The notes under the pieces are model-generated. The model ran no database searches and was not told the DNA's origin. It saw nothing but the letters and a program-made list of their open reading frames with translations. From a virus (lineage: Duplodnaviria; Heunggongvirae; Uroviricota; Caudoviricetes), in IMG/VR virus record IMGVR_UViG_2713896904_000008, positions 1 to 23,195 of that record: 23,195 nucleotides of DNA; one strand, 5' to 3'. Made by a program: the position numbers and the translations under genes. This document shows, in pieces, positions 1,784 through 23,195 of this stretch. The first letter of the stretch is position 1, and each line of letters begins with the position of its first letter.

Positions 1784-1966
1784 TTACCAAACGGTAGCTT
1801 CAATCTTCACTTTAATGTCATACTTCTTTAAAAGTTTGTGGAAGGTTGATTGATCAATACCTTCACCTTTAAACCATTCACCCATCACTACATCAGGTGT
1901 CAGTTCAAAATAACGCTTTGCCATTTCTAAAACGATTTCACGAGTGAACTTAACAGGTCGTGCCAT
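1784..1966 (-). CDS. Small putative HTH DNA-binding protein (60 aa), paralog of 5426..5656
   Basis: Strong RBS AGGAGGA; shares N-motif (R-P-x-K/R-F-T/D-R-E) and C-motif (GI-x-Q/S-x-F-H/Y-K-L/S-L-K/H-K-Y/V-D-I/L-K) with ORFs 5426..5656 and 5685..6287. Confidence 0.6.
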   Translation of the reverse strand: MARPVKFTREIVLEMAKRYFELTPDVVMGEWFKGEGIDQSTFHKLLKKYDIKVKIEATVW

Positions 1967-2031
1967 CTTAAATCCTCCTAAATCTGGATTAATGATTTCT
2001 TAAAAAAAGAGCGTTAACCGCTCACTATTAT

Positions 2032-2060
2032 TTATATGGGGATTGTTTTTAATTTTTCAA
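2032..2060 (-). promoter_or_regulatory. Sigma70-like promoter for the leftward 1966..1784 gene (minus-strand TTGAAA-17-ATATAA) with a 5-bp-arm inverted repeat (2009-2023) at the predicted start site
   Basis: Hexamers read on reverse complement: -35 at 2055-2060, -10 at 2032-2037, 17-nt spacer. Confidence 0.4.
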
Positions 2061-2474
2061 CCCCTCACATTTATCTCTTATATATGTATTTATAACAGAG
2101 ATATGTTAAAATGTTATTTGGATGTTATCAGGCGTGTTAAATGTGTTAAACCACAGCACGAATTGCTAAAGCGAAGAACACGAATTAACCAAATTGATGT
2201 TTATTCAATCAATTTAGAAAATTGCATAGCACTTTTTGCTAAAGCGGTGAGCATTAATTGAGCTATGAATTGTAAAGATTTGTTACAAGATTTTCTCTCA
2301 GATCCAAATCTTCACAGACATATAACAATTTAACAGAAGGATAACAAATGGAAGGAAAATCGGTAAATTTTCACTTTCAATACAAATATTATACCACATT
2401 TTTCTCGAATCGTCAATTATAGCACCGAACCGACATAGTGTCAAGAATGGACTTTCAAACCTACACTATGAAAA

Positions 2475-2640
2475 TTGCCCCTGAATTTTGCCCCCGAATA
2501 AAATCCCCAAGATTCTACTATCCCATTTTTGCCCCTGAAATTCCGGGAAACAGTGATTTTGCCCCTCATTTTTGCCCCTGAAATGCCAATAATTGCCCCT
2601 GAAAATCTAATTTTTGCCCCTGAAATTTGCCCCCGAAAAG
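2475..2640. repeat. Array of 8 direct repeats of TTTTGCCCC(T/C)GAAA (iteron-like)
   Basis: Copies at about 2475, 2486, 2526, 2557, 2569, 2592, 2611 and 2626; same motif forms the left arm of the terminator at 5122-5146. Confidence 0.7.
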
Positions 2641-2773
2641 GATTGGTGAGAAAAACTCTTTATAAAACATTAACTTAGTGATTGGTGAAAGCGGGGGATC
2701 GGGCGTGCATAGATATTATATAACACATTCGCTACGCTCATGTGTAAAACCAAAAATAACCAAAAAGATATTA

Positions 2774-2793
2774 GGAGGGCTTTAGCCCGACTG
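2774..2793. repeat. 20-bp direct repeat ggagggctttagcccgactg, copy 1
   Basis: Exact match to 3164-3183. Confidence 0.7.
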
Positions 2794-3163
2794 CGCGAAG
2801 CGCCAACCAATTGCTTCTAGTAACAACTAATTTAAACTAGATGATACTAGATGGTCTTAGAAGGAATTAACTAGTTTGCTCGCTCGCTTCGCTCACTCTC
2901 AAACGTCTGCGACGCCACTGCGTGGCATCGAGAATCACTTTCGAAAGGATTTTCTTGAAAGGGATTTTAAACTAGTTACTAACTGATTCTAGTAAACGAA
3001 CGAAGTGAGTAACAATCACTTTCTAGAAAGGTATTGGTATCCCTTCGGGATTGCAACCTTCGGTTGCTAAATTGCTTCCTGATTATTATTTCTCCAAAAG
3101 AAAGATTCTTATATTCTAAAGATACTTCTTCGTTTTGGTGATGATTTAATCAAAATCTATGAA

Positions 3164-3183
3164 GGAGGGCTTTAGCCCGACTG
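3164..3183. repeat. 20-bp direct repeat ggagggctttagcccgactg, copy 2
   Basis: Exact match to 2774-2793; the two copies bracket a ~370-bp CTAG-rich, hairpin-rich ORF-free segment. Confidence 0.7.
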
Positions 3184-3271
3184 AATCCAATCACTTCCAA
3201 ATAGATAAAAAATTCTCGTTATAAATACTAGTGTAATTTGTTTGATTCACTTTCTTTTAGAGGATACCACT

Positions 3272-14233: not shown

Positions 14234-17200
14234 ATGCAGTCGATCCAATTTAAACGCACACAGACGGCTGGTAAAAAGCCAACGCCGGAACAATTACAGG
14301 TCGGTGAAATCGCTATTCAGATGGCAGACCATGTAATTTATACCAAAGATAAAAATAACGCAGTAGTTCAAGTAAGTGTTTCTCCTGAAAGTCATAATGC
14401 TTTAAACACAAAAGTAGACAATAACAAGAAAACTACTGATGCGACTATCGCGGCAAATAAAACCGAAGCTGCTAACGCTCTGGCTACCGCTAAATCTGAA
14501 CTGAATAACACGATTAACACGAAAGATACAGCGACCAATAAGCGCATTGATGCTACTAACACCACTGTTAGTAACTTAACCCAGACAGTTACGGCAAATA
14601 AAACCGACGCTGACACCAAGATCAATAACCTTACGGGGACAGTTGCATCTAACAAATCAGCTATTGAAACTACAGTAGCTAATAACAAACGAGATGCGGA
14701 CAATAAAATCGCAGCTTTAACCACGACGGTTAATGACAATAACACCGCGATTAACAACAAAGTTAATACCACTAACACCAACGTTAGCAACTTAACTAAA
14801 ACTGTTACTGCAAATAAAACCGATGCAGATAACAAAATTTCTAGCTTAACTAGCACGGTTGCAGCTAACAAAACAGCGATTGAAAAGGTCGTTTCCGACA
14901 ACAAGAAAGATGCTGATACTAAAATCAGTAACCTTACAGGGACGGTGAATAGCAACCATACCGCTATTAACGCAAAGGTTGACAAAAACAAAACTGATAC
15001 TGATTCAGCGATCGCAGCCGCTAACCGTCGAATTGATTCTATTGAAGGTAGTAACGATGCTCTTTACATCAAGAAGAATACCAACACTTATCATCACGGC
15101 TATTTGTTAACCAAAACAGCTAACTATCTGGAAGACCAGACATCACGAGATCTTAACTACTTTGGTGCTTTCCGAACTAATGGACAAGATGGACTCATGG
15201 ATCTAACTCTTAATGTTCCTCATTCTGCCGGTAAAGCGCACGGTCGCGGATTTACTTTCCGTTATGCGTCTGGTGGATCTCGTGTTGAAACCTATGGTTT
15301 TGATAGAGAAGGACAGAAGAACTTTAGCTATAAGATGTATCACGAAGGTGATAAGCCGACTCCTGGCGAAATCGGTGCATACACTAAAGCAGAAGTTGAC
15401 AAGATGTTTGTTAAAAACGTCACTATGTCTGTTCCTAATTCTAGCGAAAACGTATCTGCATATTTCAAATTGGCAACCGCAACAATTCCACAAAACGGGC
15501 GTAGTGTGTTTTTCCGTATTCATGGTGGTAATGGTTACAACGTTACGGCATATGACCAAGTTGATGTAGTAGAAATTCTTCTCCGTAGTGGTAACGATAG
15601 ACCTAAAGGACTTAACGTAATTGCATACCGTAGAAATACAAACAAAGATTTTGAGGTATTTGCTGTCAATACTTCCGGTGATAACTATGATATCTACGTG
15701 AAATATCAGCGTTATACCGATAACGTTATTGTCGAATATGGGAAATCTGTTTATGTAAGTTTGACGGTTTATGATACGCCGGAAGCCACGTTAATTAAAC
15801 CTTCCGTTGGTGTTATCGGTGGTCGCAACGTAACTCTTTTTAACACAGAAAATAAACGTGGTGTGTTGAGTTTTGACGACAATACACAAAACAGCTATGA
15901 CATTGTTCATCTAAGCAATGATAGAGGTACTGGACGGAAATATATTCGTAAATTCCGTAGCAACTATAACGAAATGATCTGGCATGAGACTGTTCAAGGT
16001 AATACATATCGATTGGCAACCGGAACGACTGATGCATCGGAAGTTTTTAGAATTACTAGTCGCACCATGTTTACTGGTAAAGGTGTATTTGATGCCGGAC
16101 AAAACGTTCTTAGATTAGAGCGTCCTAGCAACCAATCAAACTATATTGAATGGCAAGACCGCCGAAATGGTGCTGATGCTCGTCAAGGTTGGATCGGTTT
16201 TGGTGGTGCTGAAACAAATAACTTTCAATGGTATAGCGATCAAGGAAAAAACTCATTCCTGTTGGATGCTAATGGTCAATGCTCTATTATTACTGGTGCA
16301 ACAAAAATTGTATATACCAACGGTGAATATTGCTCTGGCAACTCTAACGCATATCGTATGGCATTTGGTAACTATGGCGCATTCTGGCGTAATGACGGCA
16401 CTAAAGTTTATCTGTTGTCTACTGCTGAAAACGATAAGTTGGGCGGCTGGAATACTTATCGACCATTCATTTATGATTTAACTTCCGGTAACGTTCAATT
16501 AGGCGGTGATGGTAACGAAGATGCATTAACGTTAGAACGTGCTTCTCGTGCCGCTCGCTTTAGTAATGACGTTTACATTAAGAAAGGGCATTTGACTTTC
16601 GACGCTGGACGATTAGGATCTCGTGATTTCTTTAAAATCAACCATTGGGGTGATAGCAATAACGCCCGTGATAACATTTTGCAGTTTGAAGACAGTCAGG
16701 GCGCACATTTTACCACTGAACGTGCTATGGGTACTGGTAACATAACAGCACGTTTTAAAGGCTTTGTTCGTGTTGAGTCTGGTGAGATTGCATTTGATGC
16801 TAATCGGGGGTCGCAGTCTCAATTCACCTTACACACATGGGGTAACGAGCAACGCAAACAGGTTTTTGAATGTAAGGATGCTACAAGTTATCACTGGTAT
16901 ACTGAACGTACTCAGGGTGGCACTGGACCTATTCTGTTCGCTATGGCGGGTAGTCTAAACGTTGCTAGCAATATCACAACAACTGGTGCTGATATTACGT
17001 TTAAACGCGCTGGCAATAAGCACATCTGGTTTAGAGATCCAGACGGTTTAGAGTTAGGCTTGATGTACTGCGATGATGCTGGTGCTATTCGCTTCCGTGG
17101 TCAGAAACAAGCCCAGACGTGGAAACTTGCGGATAAGATGATTCATCTTGAATCTGGTAGCGTCGGCGGGTCTGATAAAGGTTTGATTCGTGGTAACGTT

Positions 17201-17809
17201 TCTGGTGGTAGTTGGGCTAGCTGGCGTGACCGTGCTTCCGGTTTACAAGTTGATTGTCCTCAATCAACCGATTCCGCTCATAACATCTGGAAAGCGACTC
17301 ATTGGGGAAAATATCATATTGCGGCAATGGGTGTGCATGTTCCTGGCGGCACTATAGGTAATGCTATGGCACGTCTAAACGTAAATGACGCCAACTTTGA
17401 CTTTAACGCTGCGGGTGATTTTAGCGCAGGTCGTAACGGTAGCTTTAACGATGTTTATATTCGTTCTGACCGTCGTCTGAAAGTTAATCTGGAAGAATTA
17501 AAAGATGATGCTTTAGAGAAAGTAAACTCCCTGAAAGTCTACTCATACGATAAAGTTAAGTCTCTTAAAGATCGTAGTGTGATTAAACGCGAAGTCGGTA
17601 TTATTGCTCAGGATCTTGAAGAAGTATTGCCGGAAGCAGTAGGTATTCAATCCACCGAAGATCCAGAAAATCCAGAAGCAATTAAGACTATTTCTAACTC
17701 CGCTGTTAATGCCTTGATTATTAAAGCTATTCAGGAAATGGACGCCAAATATAAAGCCCAGATCGAAGCATTACAGAAAGAAATTGCCGAACTCAAAGCA
17801 ACTAAATAA
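14234..17809 (+). CDS. Long tail fibre protein with C-terminal intramolecular chaperone / self-cleaving domain (1191 aa)
   Basis: N-terminal KRTQTAGKKPTPEQLQVGEIAI anchor-like motif; 72-aa tandem repeats; C-terminus SDRRLK ... GIIAQDLEEVLPEAV resembles the chaperone domain of phage T5 L-shaped fibre and endosialidases (Ser-Lys dyad motif). Confidence 0.85.
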   Translation: MQSIQFKRTQTAGKKPTPEQLQVGEIAIQMADHVIYTKDKNNAVVQVSVSPESHNALNTKVDNNKKTTDATIAANKTEAANALATAKSELNNTINTKDTATNKRIDATNTTVSNLTQTVTANKTDADTKINNLTGTVASNKSAIETTVANNKRDADNKIAALTTTVNDNNTAINNKVNTTNTNVSNLTKTVTANKTDADNKISSLTSTVAANKTAIEKVVSDNKKDADTKISNLTGTVNSNHTAINAKVDKNKTDTDSAIAAANRRIDSIEGSNDALYIKKNTNTYHHGYLLTKTANYLEDQTSRDLNYFGAFRTNGQDGLMDLTLNVPHSAGKAHGRGFTFRYASGGSRVETYGFDREGQKNFSYKMYHEGDKPTPGEIGAYTKAEVDKMFVKNVTMSVPNSSENVSAYFKLATATIPQNGRSVFFRIHGGNGYNVTAYDQVDVVEILLRSGNDRPKGLNVIAYRRNTNKDFEVFAVNTSGDNYDIYVKYQRYTDNVIVEYGKSVYVSLTVYDTPEATLIKPSVGVIGGRNVTLFNTENKRGVLSFDDNTQNSYDIVHLSNDRGTGRKYIRKFRSNYNEMIWHETVQGNTYRLATGTTDASEVFRITSRTMFTGKGVFDAGQNVLRLERPSNQSNYIEWQDRRNGADARQGWIGFGGAETNNFQWYSDQGKNSFLLDANGQCSIITGATKIVYTNGEYCSGNSNAYRMAFGNYGAFWRNDGTKVYLLSTAENDKLGGWNTYRPFIYDLTSGNVQLGGDGNEDALTLERASRAARFSNDVYIKKGHLTFDAGRLGSRDFFKINHWGDSNNARDNILQFEDSQGAHFTTERAMGTGNITARFKGFVRVESGEIAFDANRGSQSQFTLHTWGNEQRKQVFECKDATSYHWYTERTQGGTGPILFAMAGSLNVASNITTTGADITFKRAGNKHIWFRDPDGLELGLMYCDDAGAIRFRGQKQAQTWKLADKMIHLESGSVGGSDKGLIRGNVSGGSWASWRDRASGLQVDCPQSTDSAHNIWKATHWGKYHIAAMGVHVPGGTIGNAMARLNVNDANFDFNAAGDFSAGRNGSFNDVYIRSDRRLKVNLEELKDDALEKVNSLKVYSYDKVKSLKDRSVIKREVGIIAQDLEEVLPEAVGIQSTEDPENPEAIKTISNSAVNALIIKAIQEMDAKYKAQIEALQKEIAELKATK
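14558..14990. repeat. Two tandem ~216-bp repeats (72 aa each, with ~14-aa sub-periodicity TVTANKTDADxKIxxLTxTV) in the fibre shaft
   Basis: NTTVSNLTQTVTANKTDADTKI at residue 109 and NTNVSNLTKTVTANKTDADNKI at residue 181. Confidence 0.7.
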
Positions 17810-19776: not shown

Positions 19777-22278
19777 ATGGCAAAAACTAAACATGTTTTG
19801 ACGGTTGAAGCCGAAATTAAAGAGGCTCAGAAAAAACTAAAACAATTAGAAGGTCAGATTAATTCCATTTCCGAAAAAGCGGGTAAGGGATTTAAAGTTA
19901 ATGGTGGTATTGGTGGCGGTGGATTCGGTGGTATATCTGAATTGGTAGGAATGGTAAACCGCTTTGCTGGTCCACAGGGGATCGCAGTCGCCGCAGCCGC
20001 AGCCACTAAGAAATTCGCGGATCACATCGCTGGTCTTTCTAGTGAACTAAGACAAGCCTCAGAGATGAGCGGTGTTGGGATTGAAGAATTACAGCGTTTA
20101 ACAGGGGTGATGAAAAACGTTAATTTAACCGCTTCCCAAGCTGCTGATATTCATAAAGACGTTAACGAGAAAATCTATGAAGCCGTTCAATCTGGTACGG
20201 GTGAGATTGCTGGTGTTGCCAAAGAATATAAGCTGAAATTTGAAGAAATCAGCAAGGTAACAGAAAACGGTGGTACTGGTATTGATGCACTCGCTAAGAT
20301 GTATTATATGCTTCGTGAACAAGGACACACAGCAAACGAGGCAGCGAGCGCCATTTCTCGTGTTAGTGATAAAGGTGGTGAACTGGCGAATCAGTTTGAG
20401 AAAATGGGGTCAGAGGCTGAATATTACAAGCAGAAGGCTAGCCAGTCTATTAACATTACCGAAGAGATGGCAAAGAAACACGCTGAATATGAGCAAAAAA
20501 CCAAAGATTTAGGAACTGCCATTGATGGTATTAAGGTAGAAGTATTTCAAGACCTGATCGTTGGTATGACTGACTTTTTTAATCATCTCTATCGGTCATT
20601 AGTTCAGTATAAATCTGATGCTGCTTTAACAGATAATTTTAAAGCACCAAAATTAACTGGCGTAGCAAAAGAACAACAAGAAAAATTACAGCAACAATTT
20701 CATAAAAACAGCACACATAAAACTGGTATAGGTGGATCTACTGGTAATTGGATGGGTAAAGAGCAAGGATTAAGCTATCAAGAAGCATTGATGCTCGTTA
20801 AAATGAATATGGATCCGACCAAGTATTTCAAGCACGCCAATAACCAGATGTACCGCGCCTTGCAAATGGCTCGTGAAGGTAAAAACTTCAATAACTCCGA
20901 TGCTCGCAAGAACTTTAGATTCACGTTCGATGGCAAGGTCTATGACGGCAACTACAACCAGATTGAAATTGCCAAAAAACAGGAAAATGACGGTAAAGGG
21001 CTTAACTCTGGTGGCGGTACTACTTGTTCTAAGTGTGGTGGTAAGAAGCACGAAGGTAACGAGAAATGCCCTGTTGATTTGGCTAAGGAAGCCCAGCAAC
21101 GCCGCGAGAAGGAACAAAAACAGCGAGAGGAGGCACTCAAGAAACTGAATGATCTCGATGTTAAATTGCAAGGACAGACCGCAGCGTCTATCACTTCTCA
21201 AAACAAGCAATTAGAAACCAGCTTAAAAGATCTTGATAATGCTGTTAAGTTGGGGCTTATTTCTCAGGAAGACGCAGCTACTAAACGCCAGCAACTGATC
21301 GACCAGAACGCCGAAAACGTTTATAAGATGGTCTTAGGTGCTGATCCGGTTGATGCTCTGAATGCTTTAACACAATTGCAACAAATCAGGGACAATGAGT
21401 TAGAAAGCCATAAACGGTTACTTGATGGTAAGGCTATCTCCTACGAAGAATATATGCGTCGTGTGAATGATACCGAACAAAGTTATTCGCAGATTGAAGA
21501 TTCTTTGCATGGAATGGATGGTTTTAAATCCAATCAATTAACAGATAGTTTCTCATATCAAGATCCGAATGATCCGTTTGCTGCTTTTAATTCCATTGAT
21601 CAAGAAAAAAGAGAAGCCGAACAAGATTACCAGACTAAGAAACTTGATATTAATAACATCAAAGATCCGAAAGAGCGGTATAAACAGTTAGAAAAACTCA
21701 ACGCTGAACATCAAAAGAAAATGGCAGCTATTGAGAAACAATATTCTGATGCTCGTTTAGGTATTGCTTCCGACATGTATGATGGTATTTCTGGTGCTAT
21801 GGCTCTCTTTGGTGCGGAAAACTCTAAAGCGGCTAAAGCTGCATTTATGGCGCATCAAGCCTACCAGATCGGCGAAGCAACGGTTAGCACTTACGCTGGT
21901 GCTGCTGCTCAGATCGCGAAGCAAAACTATGCTGGTGCGGCTTTGATCGTCGCTCAAGGTTTAGCACAGGTTGCTAAAATCAAATCTGTATCGGTTAGCG
22001 GTATGGCTCATGATGGTATCGATAACATCCCTCGTGAGGGTACATGGTTGCTTGATAAGGGTGAACGAGTAGTTGATCAGCGTACTAACGGTGATTTGAA
22101 AGACTTCTTATCTGCTCAAAAATCAGGTGGTGGTAACTCTCAGCCGATTGAAGTTAATGCGCCTTTGAACATTAACGGCAACGTTAATAGCTCAGACAAG
22201 ATGGTCATGGAAGCTATCAAACGTCATGCTAAGTTAGTTGCTCAGGCGGTAGAAGACGCACAGCGCCGTAAGATGTAA
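19777..22278 (+). CDS. Tail tape measure protein (833 aa)
   Basis: Long helical, Ala/Lys/Glu/Gln-rich protein with Gly-rich segment; canonical position after the chaperone pair. Confidence 0.85.
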   Translation: MAKTKHVLTVEAEIKEAQKKLKQLEGQINSISEKAGKGFKVNGGIGGGGFGGISELVGMVNRFAGPQGIAVAAAAATKKFADHIAGLSSELRQASEMSGVGIEELQRLTGVMKNVNLTASQAADIHKDVNEKIYEAVQSGTGEIAGVAKEYKLKFEEISKVTENGGTGIDALAKMYYMLREQGHTANEAASAISRVSDKGGELANQFEKMGSEAEYYKQKASQSINITEEMAKKHAEYEQKTKDLGTAIDGIKVEVFQDLIVGMTDFFNHLYRSLVQYKSDAALTDNFKAPKLTGVAKEQQEKLQQQFHKNSTHKTGIGGSTGNWMGKEQGLSYQEALMLVKMNMDPTKYFKHANNQMYRALQMAREGKNFNNSDARKNFRFTFDGKVYDGNYNQIEIAKKQENDGKGLNSGGGTTCSKCGGKKHEGNEKCPVDLAKEAQQRREKEQKQREEALKKLNDLDVKLQGQTAASITSQNKQLETSLKDLDNAVKLGLISQEDAATKRQQLIDQNAENVYKMVLGADPVDALNALTQLQQIRDNELESHKRLLDGKAISYEEYMRRVNDTEQSYSQIEDSLHGMDGFKSNQLTDSFSYQDPNDPFAAFNSIDQEKREAEQDYQTKKLDINNIKDPKERYKQLEKLNAEHQKKMAAIEKQYSDARLGIASDMYDGISGAMALFGAENSKAAKAAFMAHQAYQIGEATVSTYAGAAAQIAKQNYAGAALIVAQGLAQVAKIKSVSVSGMAHDGIDNIPREGTWLLDKGERVVDQRTNGDLKDFLSAQKSGGGNSQPIEVNAPLNINGNVNSSDKMVMEAIKRHAKLVAQAVEDAQRRKM

Positions 22279-22283
22279 TTAAA

Positions 22284-22328
22284 AGCCCCCATAGTCATAA
22301 ATAATCATAAAACTATGGGGGCTTTTCT
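22284..22328 (+). terminator. Hairpin with perfect 12-bp stem (agcccccatagt / actatgggggct) and 16-nt AU-rich loop, followed by TTTT
   Basis: Read directly; overlaps the RBS region of the next ORF. Confidence 0.45.
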
Positions 22329-23195
22329 ATGTTCAAATCAAAGAATATTAAAATCACAGATTTTACTCTTAAATCAAAACAGCCTTTCTTTAAGGCGCAA
22401 TCTATCTCCGGTAAGTTCCAGCGTCGCTTTACTGGCATCCATTTTTACGAAGCAGAATTTACCGCGAATTTCATGGCTCAGGATATTAACGAAGTAAAAG
22501 AATTTGTAGCACGTCACCTTTTTGGTCGTCCTTTCAATGTGCCACTGTCTTACTTTTCAAAATATACAGGTGATGTACGCCAGATGGTTACGGCTGCTGC
22601 TGGTACTGCTCGCGGTGGGCGTAAGGTGAGAATCTCCAACTTCACCGGAACACTGAAAGCAGGAACTATCATCCAGTTTGAGAACCACAAGAAAATCTAC
22701 ACGATCACCGAAGACGTGAAATCAGGTGGTGAAATGAAACTCTTCCCTAACTTGCGTCAGAACGTCCTGGCGGGTGAGGTGATCAAGTATCAGAACGTAG
22801 AAGGTGAATTTGTTCTCAAAACTGAAAATATCGATTGGAAGATCGCCCAGATTGGCAACCCAAAGTATCCGGTTGATTTTAAAGCTATTGCTGAGGCCGC
22901 TGCGGAATATCAGGTGGCGCTGGAAATCAATAATTCTTCATTCTTACATTCGCGTAAGGGGAGTGAGGATAACTGCCGTGCGGTTGCTGCTGCTGTACGC
23001 GATGCCGGGGGCTGGGTGGCATTAGGATCGGATTCTCACACTGCATTTACGATGGGGGAATTTGAAGAGTGCCGTAAAATTCTTGACGCAGTAGATTTTC
23101 CACAAGAGCGCATTTTGAATGTTTCTCCGCGCCGCTTGCTGAGTTTCCTTGAATCTCGCGGTATGTCGCCGATTGCGGAATTTGCTGACTTTTAA
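22329..23195 (+). CDS. Chimeric ORF: 3'-truncated minor/distal tail protein (~172 aa, phage codon usage) fused in frame to the C-terminal ~115 aa of a YcdX-like PHP phosphoesterase
   Basis: Abrupt codon-usage change near 22850; C-terminal GNPKY ... [11 protein letters not shown] ... GSDSH ... AEFADF matches, from memory, the C-terminus of E. coli YcdX. Confidence 0.6.
22852..23195 (+). other. ycdX: 3' fragment of a host ycdX-like gene (PHP-family phosphatase); host-phage or chimeric junction at ~22845-22855
   Basis: PHP-domain motifs ALEINNS and GSDSH; host-like codon usage (ggg, agt, tta, gga, tcg); identification by recall, not by search. Confidence 0.55.

Follow-up and report, generated by a model that had tools for sequence, protein, structure and literature searches.

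Cryptic prophages of Escherichia coli K-12, such as e14 (in icd), Rac, DLP12, and Qin, have decayed by deletion and are fixed in place. The element described here, a prophage remnant of Escherichia albertii, resembles them in that it lies in or next to a host gene, is truncated by deletion, is bordered by partial ORFs, and is devoid of genes for excision, lysis, and virion completion. It differs from them in that its deletion is apparently the sole lesion, suggesting that the remnant is young, and in that this deletion took the recombinase end and made a long in-frame phage-host ORF. More similar still are the prophages integrated in ycdX of E. coli, including the one in PSJ-22, which share with this element the integration site, the attL sequence, ~90% nucleotide identity, and the same order of genes (183-aa left-end gene, terminase, portal, capsid, fibre-like protein, tube, tape measure, and distal tail protein, or Dit). 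In contrast to this element, which has lost all three, the E. coli prophages retain a 186-aa Dit, a 13.4-kb right arm, and a normal attR. A prophage of Cronobacter sakazakii at ycdX appears as a table entry in PMC3680222, and literature searches on the accession numbers and on ycdX as a site of attachment returned nothing further.

The window, i.e., the whole 23,195-nucleotide stretch of DNA that was analyzed, corresponds to bases 76515–99709 of GenBank contig BBVR01000008.1. Its final ORF joins parts of two otherwise separate proteins. As in other siphoviruses, where the nearest Dit named in Pfam is pb9 of phage T5, the Dit encoded here follows the tape measure, but its last 10 residues are replaced. 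Compared to YcdX, a PHP-family phosphatase with a trinuclear zinc site (PDB 1m65, 1m68, and 1pb0), the ORF holds a gene fragment without the PHP fold. The initial annotation, made from the letters of the sequence, had described this ORF as a phage minor-tail gene fused in frame to the 3′ end of a host ycdX-like gene, and homology searches of both halves confirmed that it is a phage Dit gene joined in frame to the 3′ end of host ycdX. The features on which the following analysis is based are, in window coordinates:

1–22858, plus strand: portion of the prophage remnant lying within the window, homologous to the ycdX prophages of E. coli
19777–22278, plus strand: gene of the tape measure protein (833 aa), immediately 5′ of the chimeric ORF, matching tape-measure PHROGs
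22329–23195, plus strand: chimeric ORF, 288 open codons, with a TAA stop at the last base of the window
22329–22856, plus strand: Dit-derived part, codons 1–176 of a 186-codon distal tail protein gene, matching PHROG 1302
22857–23195, plus strand: host ycdX 3′ remnant, codons N134–F245 plus stop, the B′ side of the former attR
22854–22858, no strand assigned: deletion junction GGCAA, common to the Dit gene (GGC AAG) and the attR of relatives (GG[C/G]-AA); the last base with phage homology is 22858, and identity to ycdX starts at 22860

The first half of the ORF matches PHROG 1302 ("distal tail protein") with an E-value of 2.8e-16, and its gene adjoins the 3′ side of the tape-measure gene, whose product belongs to tape-measure PHROG families (best E-value, 7.9e-43). 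The earlier expectation of a tail protein following the tape measure was thus borne out, and the protein can be named as Dit. Against the B domain of T5 pb9 in Pfam, the match was weak, scoring 18 bits relative to a curated cut-off of 27. Residues 1–176 of the ORF are ~98% identical to a 186-aa protein encoded right after the tape-measure gene in E. coli prophages, the C-terminus of which reads ...IAQIGKMKFELVENV followed by the stop. The alignment to the PSJ-22 gene is near-identical as far as ...CAGATTGGCAA, and the last 10 residues present in the 186-aa homologues are missing. Between the tape-measure gene and Dit (22281–22327), the DNA encodes a perfect 15-bp hairpin (dG of −25.6 kcal/mol; z of −6.3), followed by UUUUCU abutting the Dit AUG. 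This hairpin is kept in E. coli PSJ-22, and a GGGGG run in its 3′ arm is the sole Shine-Dalgarno-like run; it may act as a terminator or as a translational gate between the two genes.

For the second half, residues 172–287 of the ORF align to residues 129–244 of E. coli YcdX (PDB 1m65) with an E-value of 3e-63 in a phmmer search against PDB, and residues 177–288 are homologous to YcdX residues 134–245. The host-derived part comprises 112 aa (N134–F245) instead of the 115 aa first estimated, just as the junction, first placed near 22850, was found at 22854–22858 (GGCAA). At the DNA level, positions 22860–23195 have a single mismatch to the intact 245-codon ycdX of the E. albertii type strain NBRC 107761, compared to 85–87% identity to ycdX of E. 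coli. Over the whole ycdX part, there are two differences from the type-strain gene, namely, C22859 (T in native genes) and one G/C change. In a scan of one genome per species, the YcdX part showed 99% protein identity to E. albertii NBRC 107761 and at most 92% identity in other Escherichia species. Given these E-values and the near-identity to the gene of the host species itself, the likeness to YcdX is not due to chance. A switch from phage-type to chromosomal codon usage, which the initial annotation had also reported at the junction, could not be seen in GC3, with values of 0.455 (Dit part) and 0.429 (ycdX part); total GC alone rises (from 0.43 to 0.49). The suggestion that the PHP domain is incomplete was upheld, as only codons 134–245 are present, which leaves 112 residues (46% of the 245) from the C-terminal side of a barrel formed by a single domain, and the ORF gets no score from PF02811, the Pfam model for PHP. 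The 1m65 structure paper reportedly places seven of the nine metal ligands of YcdX before residue 134.

An exact-protein look-up located the 288-aa product on the 165-kb contig BBVR01000008.1 of E. albertii assembly GCA_001514825.1. The Logan assemblies of runs DRR017193 and DRR017194 also carry it, and the exact protein was found on four contigs in total, all from one lineage. Both borders of the window are gene borders: the left border is the stop of a 183-aa phage gene, and the right one is the stop of ycdX, the TAA of which is indeed the last base of the window, as had been pointed out. Downstream of the chimeric ORF lie ycdY, ycdZ, and csgGFED, the native neighbours of ycdX as in E. coli. 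The 5′ part of ycdX, proposed earlier as a check at the other end of the element, was recovered there: upstream on the same contig are ghrA, then ycdX codons 1–133, and then phage DNA. The remnant starts at a canonical attL (CATCCAGGA-AA-CCCGAACGTAGTC / CATCCAGGA-AA-CCCGAACGTAGTCAACCCCCAATAAC), located 916 bp upstream of window base 1 and like that of E. coli lysogens in form. Because the attL at this far end is canonical, the phage appears to have integrated normally, with damage at the right end only.

The attL-side ORF of ycdX (L007 12565–12990, minus strand) consists of 141 codons, 133 of which are native and are followed by NPNVVNPQ and a stop. This ORF carries the PF02811 hit and sits 24 kb from the 3′ part of the gene. 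Since it ends in NPNVVNPQ and a stop, the phage brings no replacement 3′ end and lysogeny inactivates ycdX; integration by this family splits the gene without restoring it.

To place the remnant among related elements, the whole window was compared by megablast to 5,426 complete E. coli genomes. Approximately 35 of these genomes carry prophages that align to the window at 87–91% identity, with alignments that start at window base 1–419 and all stop at 22858. Prophages of ~37 kb integrated in ycdX were found in 27 of the 5,426 genomes, with both attL and attR present in 27/27. In PSJ-22 (NZ_AP027634.1, ~1,178,000–1,214,900), the prophage inside ycdX measures 36,896 bp from attL to attR, and 83% of window positions 12–22858 align to it at 90.5% identity. 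Its Dit gene is followed by genes for a 217-aa hub-like protein, a DUF6950 protein, and a 1258-aa tip protein (GpJ C-terminal and tail-tip domains), as well as small ORFs; further right are an M15 peptidase, a UvsW-like helicase, a CapR/GIY-YIG protein, a 558-aa recombinase, and three small ORFs, and the right end is formed by attR, the ycdX 3′ remnant, and ycdY. The 558-aa recombinase contains Resolvase, Recombinase, and Zn_ribbon_recom domains, and its gene is located 1.3 kb from attR in the relatives.

In the window genome, the ~13.4 kb that separates Dit from the ycdX 3′ remnant in intact relatives is absent, and the Dit frame runs straight into the ycdX remnant. The next gene after the ORF is ycdY, with no hub, DUF6950, or tip gene. 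What remains is a Rha regulator, a GpA-type terminase, portal, a protease-capsid fusion, a 1191-aa fibre-like protein, tail tube, chaperones, tape measure, and the truncated Dit; the lengths of the remaining window phage genes match those of PSJ-22 one for one. Because these genes keep the lengths of their intact relatives, the deletion is probably recent, and it looks to be the sole lesion of the remnant. Among the interpretations offered initially, that of a structural gene interrupted by a prophage/host junction, with the element thereby truncated and defective, is the one to which the missing ~13.4 kb points. An illegitimate-recombination remnant, offered there as a separate possibility, is the same event seen otherwise, and is compatible with the 5-bp microhomology at the junction. 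The full-length Dit of 186–187 aa is taken to be ancestral, since neither attL nor attR is missing from any of the 27 lysogens and the full-coverage Dit homologues listed are all of this length. This element probably belongs among the serine-recombinase prophages, judging by homology of its remaining 24 kb; the recombinase and the attR P arm are deleted here.

Taken with the demonstrated identity of both halves, the intact relatives, the missing genes, the far-end attL, and the reproducibility of the junction in three assemblies, these comparisons make it very probable that the prophage integrated normally and then lost its right third by deletion, with the chimeric ORF arising as a by-product. 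The order of events, the exact parental attR, and the manner of deletion are inferred as follows. A ~37-kb temperate siphovirus with a large serine recombinase would have integrated into ycdX of an E. albertii strain. Later, a single deletion of ~13.4 kb would have removed everything from Dit codon 177 through the attR core, i.e., the last 10 Dit codons, the baseplate hub, the DUF6950 protein, the GpJ-like tip protein, and small ORFs, together with the M15 endolysin, the UvsW-like helicase, the CapR/GIY-YIG protein, the recombinase, and the P arm of attR. The ends would have been joined at GGCAA, such that the Dit frame continues into ycdX codons 134–245 to give the 288-aa ORF. With no recombinase, attR, or lysis genes, the remnant would be locked in the chromosome and ycdX would remain split; judged by its gene content, the element is predicted to be incapable of building a tail, lysing the cell, or excising. 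Two other orders of events were considered. Primary integration via the Dit site is ruled out by the canonical attL and by a gene order equal to that of normal lysogens. Integration of an already deleted phage genome was also rejected, as it fits this attL and gene order no better and such a molecule would be without the P arm and the recombinase.

To define the attachment site, native, attL, and attR sequences were compared. In native ycdX, both E. coli and two E. albertii sequences have GGA-AA-TCC; attL in three lysogens reads GGA-AA-CCC, and attR in four lysogens reads GG(C/G)-AA-TCC, with GGG-AA in three of the four and GGC-AA in PSJ-22. Thus, strand exchange falls in AA, which would be the crossover dinucleotide of the serine recombinase, placing integration between ycdX codons G133 and N134. 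The reconstructed attP is GTTATTGTGGGTACATGATATTAGG[C/G]-AA-CCCGAACGTAGTCAACCCCCAATAAC, the 26-nt arms of which form inverted repeats at 17 of 26 positions around AA. Inverted-repeat arms centred on a dinucleotide are expected for the site of a large serine recombinase. A search of IMG/VR with a 31-nt pattern gave no match to a free-phage attP.

At the junction, the window reads CAGATTGGC-AA-CCCAAAGTATCC, whereas the Dit gene of the relatives reads CAGATTGGCAAGATG at the matching site (GGC AAG). The junction AA (22857–22858) coincides with the inferred attR crossover dinucleotide. The codon phase of GGN-AAN is the same in Dit (G176–K177) and ycdX (G133–N134), and because of this equal phase the fusion is in frame. 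Position 22859 is C in the window, whereas native E. albertii ycdX (L008 and L091) and every attR site of E. coli have T. A phage-derived C stands at the equivalent position in the attL of the window genome. Across enterobacterial species, ycdX codon 134 is AAT in 45 and AAC in 35, and it is plausible that C22859 represents a synonymous AAC allele carried by the ycdX of this strain, as the deletion model needs. A metagenome scan for the native/attR core returned one native E. albertii-like ycdX, which has AAT and leaves C22859 unexplained.

That the two halves were joined by the assembler or in a construct, and are not contiguous in a real genome, had been raised initially and is now very improbable. 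The exact coincidence of the window end with the ycdX stop looks artificial, and the support for the junction is at the level of assemblies; however, the window borders are merely gene borders, and the 165-kb contig carries on into the ycdY-csg region. The GenBank contig and both Logan assemblies share an identical junction, and the Logan assemblies cross it with different contig ends. Over 10.9, 10.0, and 4.6 kb, the three match the window at 100% identity, and downstream they do not differ from one another, although they possibly represent one strain or even one read set and so probe the behaviour of assemblers, not independent inheritance. Loci spanning the junction contain 4.5–10 kb of phage DNA upstream and 6.5–10 kb of host DNA downstream, and a k-mer assembler is not misled by a 5-bp overlap. 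In addition, the missing genes, e.g., the recombinase, are not located beside ycdY, and the far-end attL fits a real integration. It is equally hard to credit that the fusion has been selected as a tail or other protein with an acquired YcdX-derived C-terminal module. The ORF is intact and in frame, and it is preceded by a conserved hairpin and start context, but joining in frame has a 1-in-3 chance, the tail genes that a Dit needs are gone, and YcdX contributes under half of its single-domain barrel, with no score for the Pfam PHP model. Both halves occur together in none of 485 homologues: the listed Dit relatives with this coverage are 186–187 aa (with one exception, P0013), YcdX relatives are ~245 aa or else fragments or internally deleted forms of YcdX, and the exact protein is confined to one lineage. 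From its composition, the fusion protein is almost certainly non-functional. The exception, P0013, comes from a 621-bp ENA contig. In this ORF, Dit residues 1–134 are joined to the C-terminus of the tape measure through a KSGG motif common to both, probably because a short metagenome contig was misassembled; it has no relation to the window junction.

For the deletion itself, two routes both fit, and the choice between them is about even. The phage serine recombinase may have made or started the deletion, a route that falls just short of an even chance. In one variant, attR would have recombined with a pseudo-site X-AA-X′ inside Dit, yielding X-AA-B′ in the chromosome and a lost circle; in another, a cut at the AA of attR would have left a broken B′ end, which would then have been ligated to a resected end finishing in ...GGCAA. 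This route would account for the position of the right deletion end, which lies within 5 bp that hold the inferred attR crossover AA, whereas a random end point in the 340-bp ycdX remnant would do so in only ~1–2% of cases. The Dit site has the required AA, and if the parental P arm was GGG-AA (as in 3/4 relatives), the sole exact overlap is the crossover AA. As with the pseudo-attB and pseudo-attP sites of phiC31, one partner of the junction here is a real att site, joined exactly at its central dinucleotide, and the other partner has the same dinucleotide. Documented pseudo-sites of serine integrases, however, resemble the true site clearly better than chance, whereas the Dit site is a poor att mimic, with 10/26 matches to the B arm and 7/26 to the P′ arm; when 3,977 AA sites of the PSJ-22 prophage were scored versus the B, P, B′, and P′ arms, it ranked no better than the top 10–15%, so that specific recognition is not supported by the sequence. 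Moreover, serine integrases of the phiC31 and Bxb1 types are strict about their partner sites and need a directionality factor for attR reactions, and a comparable deletion was seen in none of 27 E. coli lysogens. A more specific form, in which the recombinase acted on attR and a near-random site sharing only AA, or made an abortive double-strand cut at attR, is put forward tentatively and with rather less than even probability. If correct, it would be a natural case in which a serine integrase cut short its own prophage and fixed it permanently in the chromosome, and integrase errors would constitute a route to prophage domestication.

The same junction could have formed by recombinase-independent illegitimate recombination, i.e., by replication slippage or by the joining of ends at two GGCAA pentamers separated by 13.4 kb, and we regard this as slightly under an even bet as well. 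The overlap with the attR core would then be coincidental, leaving the exact match of the right end to the recombinase crossover unexplained. Deletion between short repeats is the usual route of prophage decay, and potential partners are plentiful, with 51 GGCAA on this strand of the prophage; the dissimilarity of the Dit site to an att site also favours this route. The extent of the repeat depends on the parental allele: a parent with GGC-AA, like PSJ-22, would supply a 5-bp direct repeat at the junction, but the microhomology would be only 2 bp if the parent had GGG-AA, as in three of four relatives. The case is one of ordinary prophage decay by deletion, a familiar process, and the coincidence of the deletion end with the recombinase crossover provides a small, testable hint on how such prophages decay.

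Both the parental attR and the gene content of the deleted segment were reconstructed from E. coli relatives, which have ~90% identity. A look-up of the exact tape-measure protein, used to find an E. albertii parent with intact Dit, returned the deleted lineage only. Among isolated phages, a megablast of window positions 19777–23195 against INPHARED gave no match, and tblastn with the Dit part gave a single distant match (phage DCP80, 45% identity). Since isolated phages provided no intact reference, the E. coli prophages served as reference. The phage family is mostly known from prophages and is poorly represented among isolated phages; close homologues of its Dit protein occur in Salmonella genomes. 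When the sets of genomes with attL and with attR were compared, no other deletion derivative was found among the 27 E. coli lysogens. The sole apparent attL/attR mismatch, FXCREC043, has an attR that differs in sequence yet is complete. This prophage (L093, NZ_CP195866.1 2055000–2100000) has an IS1 in its protease-capsid gene and a truncated fibre gene, lesions that are a different decay route.

These results bear on annotation: the 288-aa ORF is best treated as a pseudogene or junction artefact, neither tail protein nor phosphatase, and the 24-kb element as a defective prophage. They also identify ycdX as the attachment site of a siphovirus family with a serine recombinase, not only in E. coli but also in E. 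albertii.

Two further observations concern the remaining phage portion of the window. The 1191-aa protein (14234–17809) has T4 gp34-trimer and S74 chaperone domains and is long-tail-fibre-like; its gene sits between the head genes and the tail tube gene, an unusual place for a fibre gene, and a truncated homologue in one E. coli relative is annotated in RefSeq as "phage head spike fiber." Near the left end, positions 2462–2637 contain approximately nine copies of an 11–13-nt motif, TTGCCCCTGAA, at spacings of 13–71 nt. The array lies in an ORF-poor gap (1966–3242; 1.3 kb with almost no ORFs), a gap of 1.4 kb without annotation occupies the same position in the PSJ-22 prophage (L003 7890–9280), and the array could be an iteron-type origin or an operator array.
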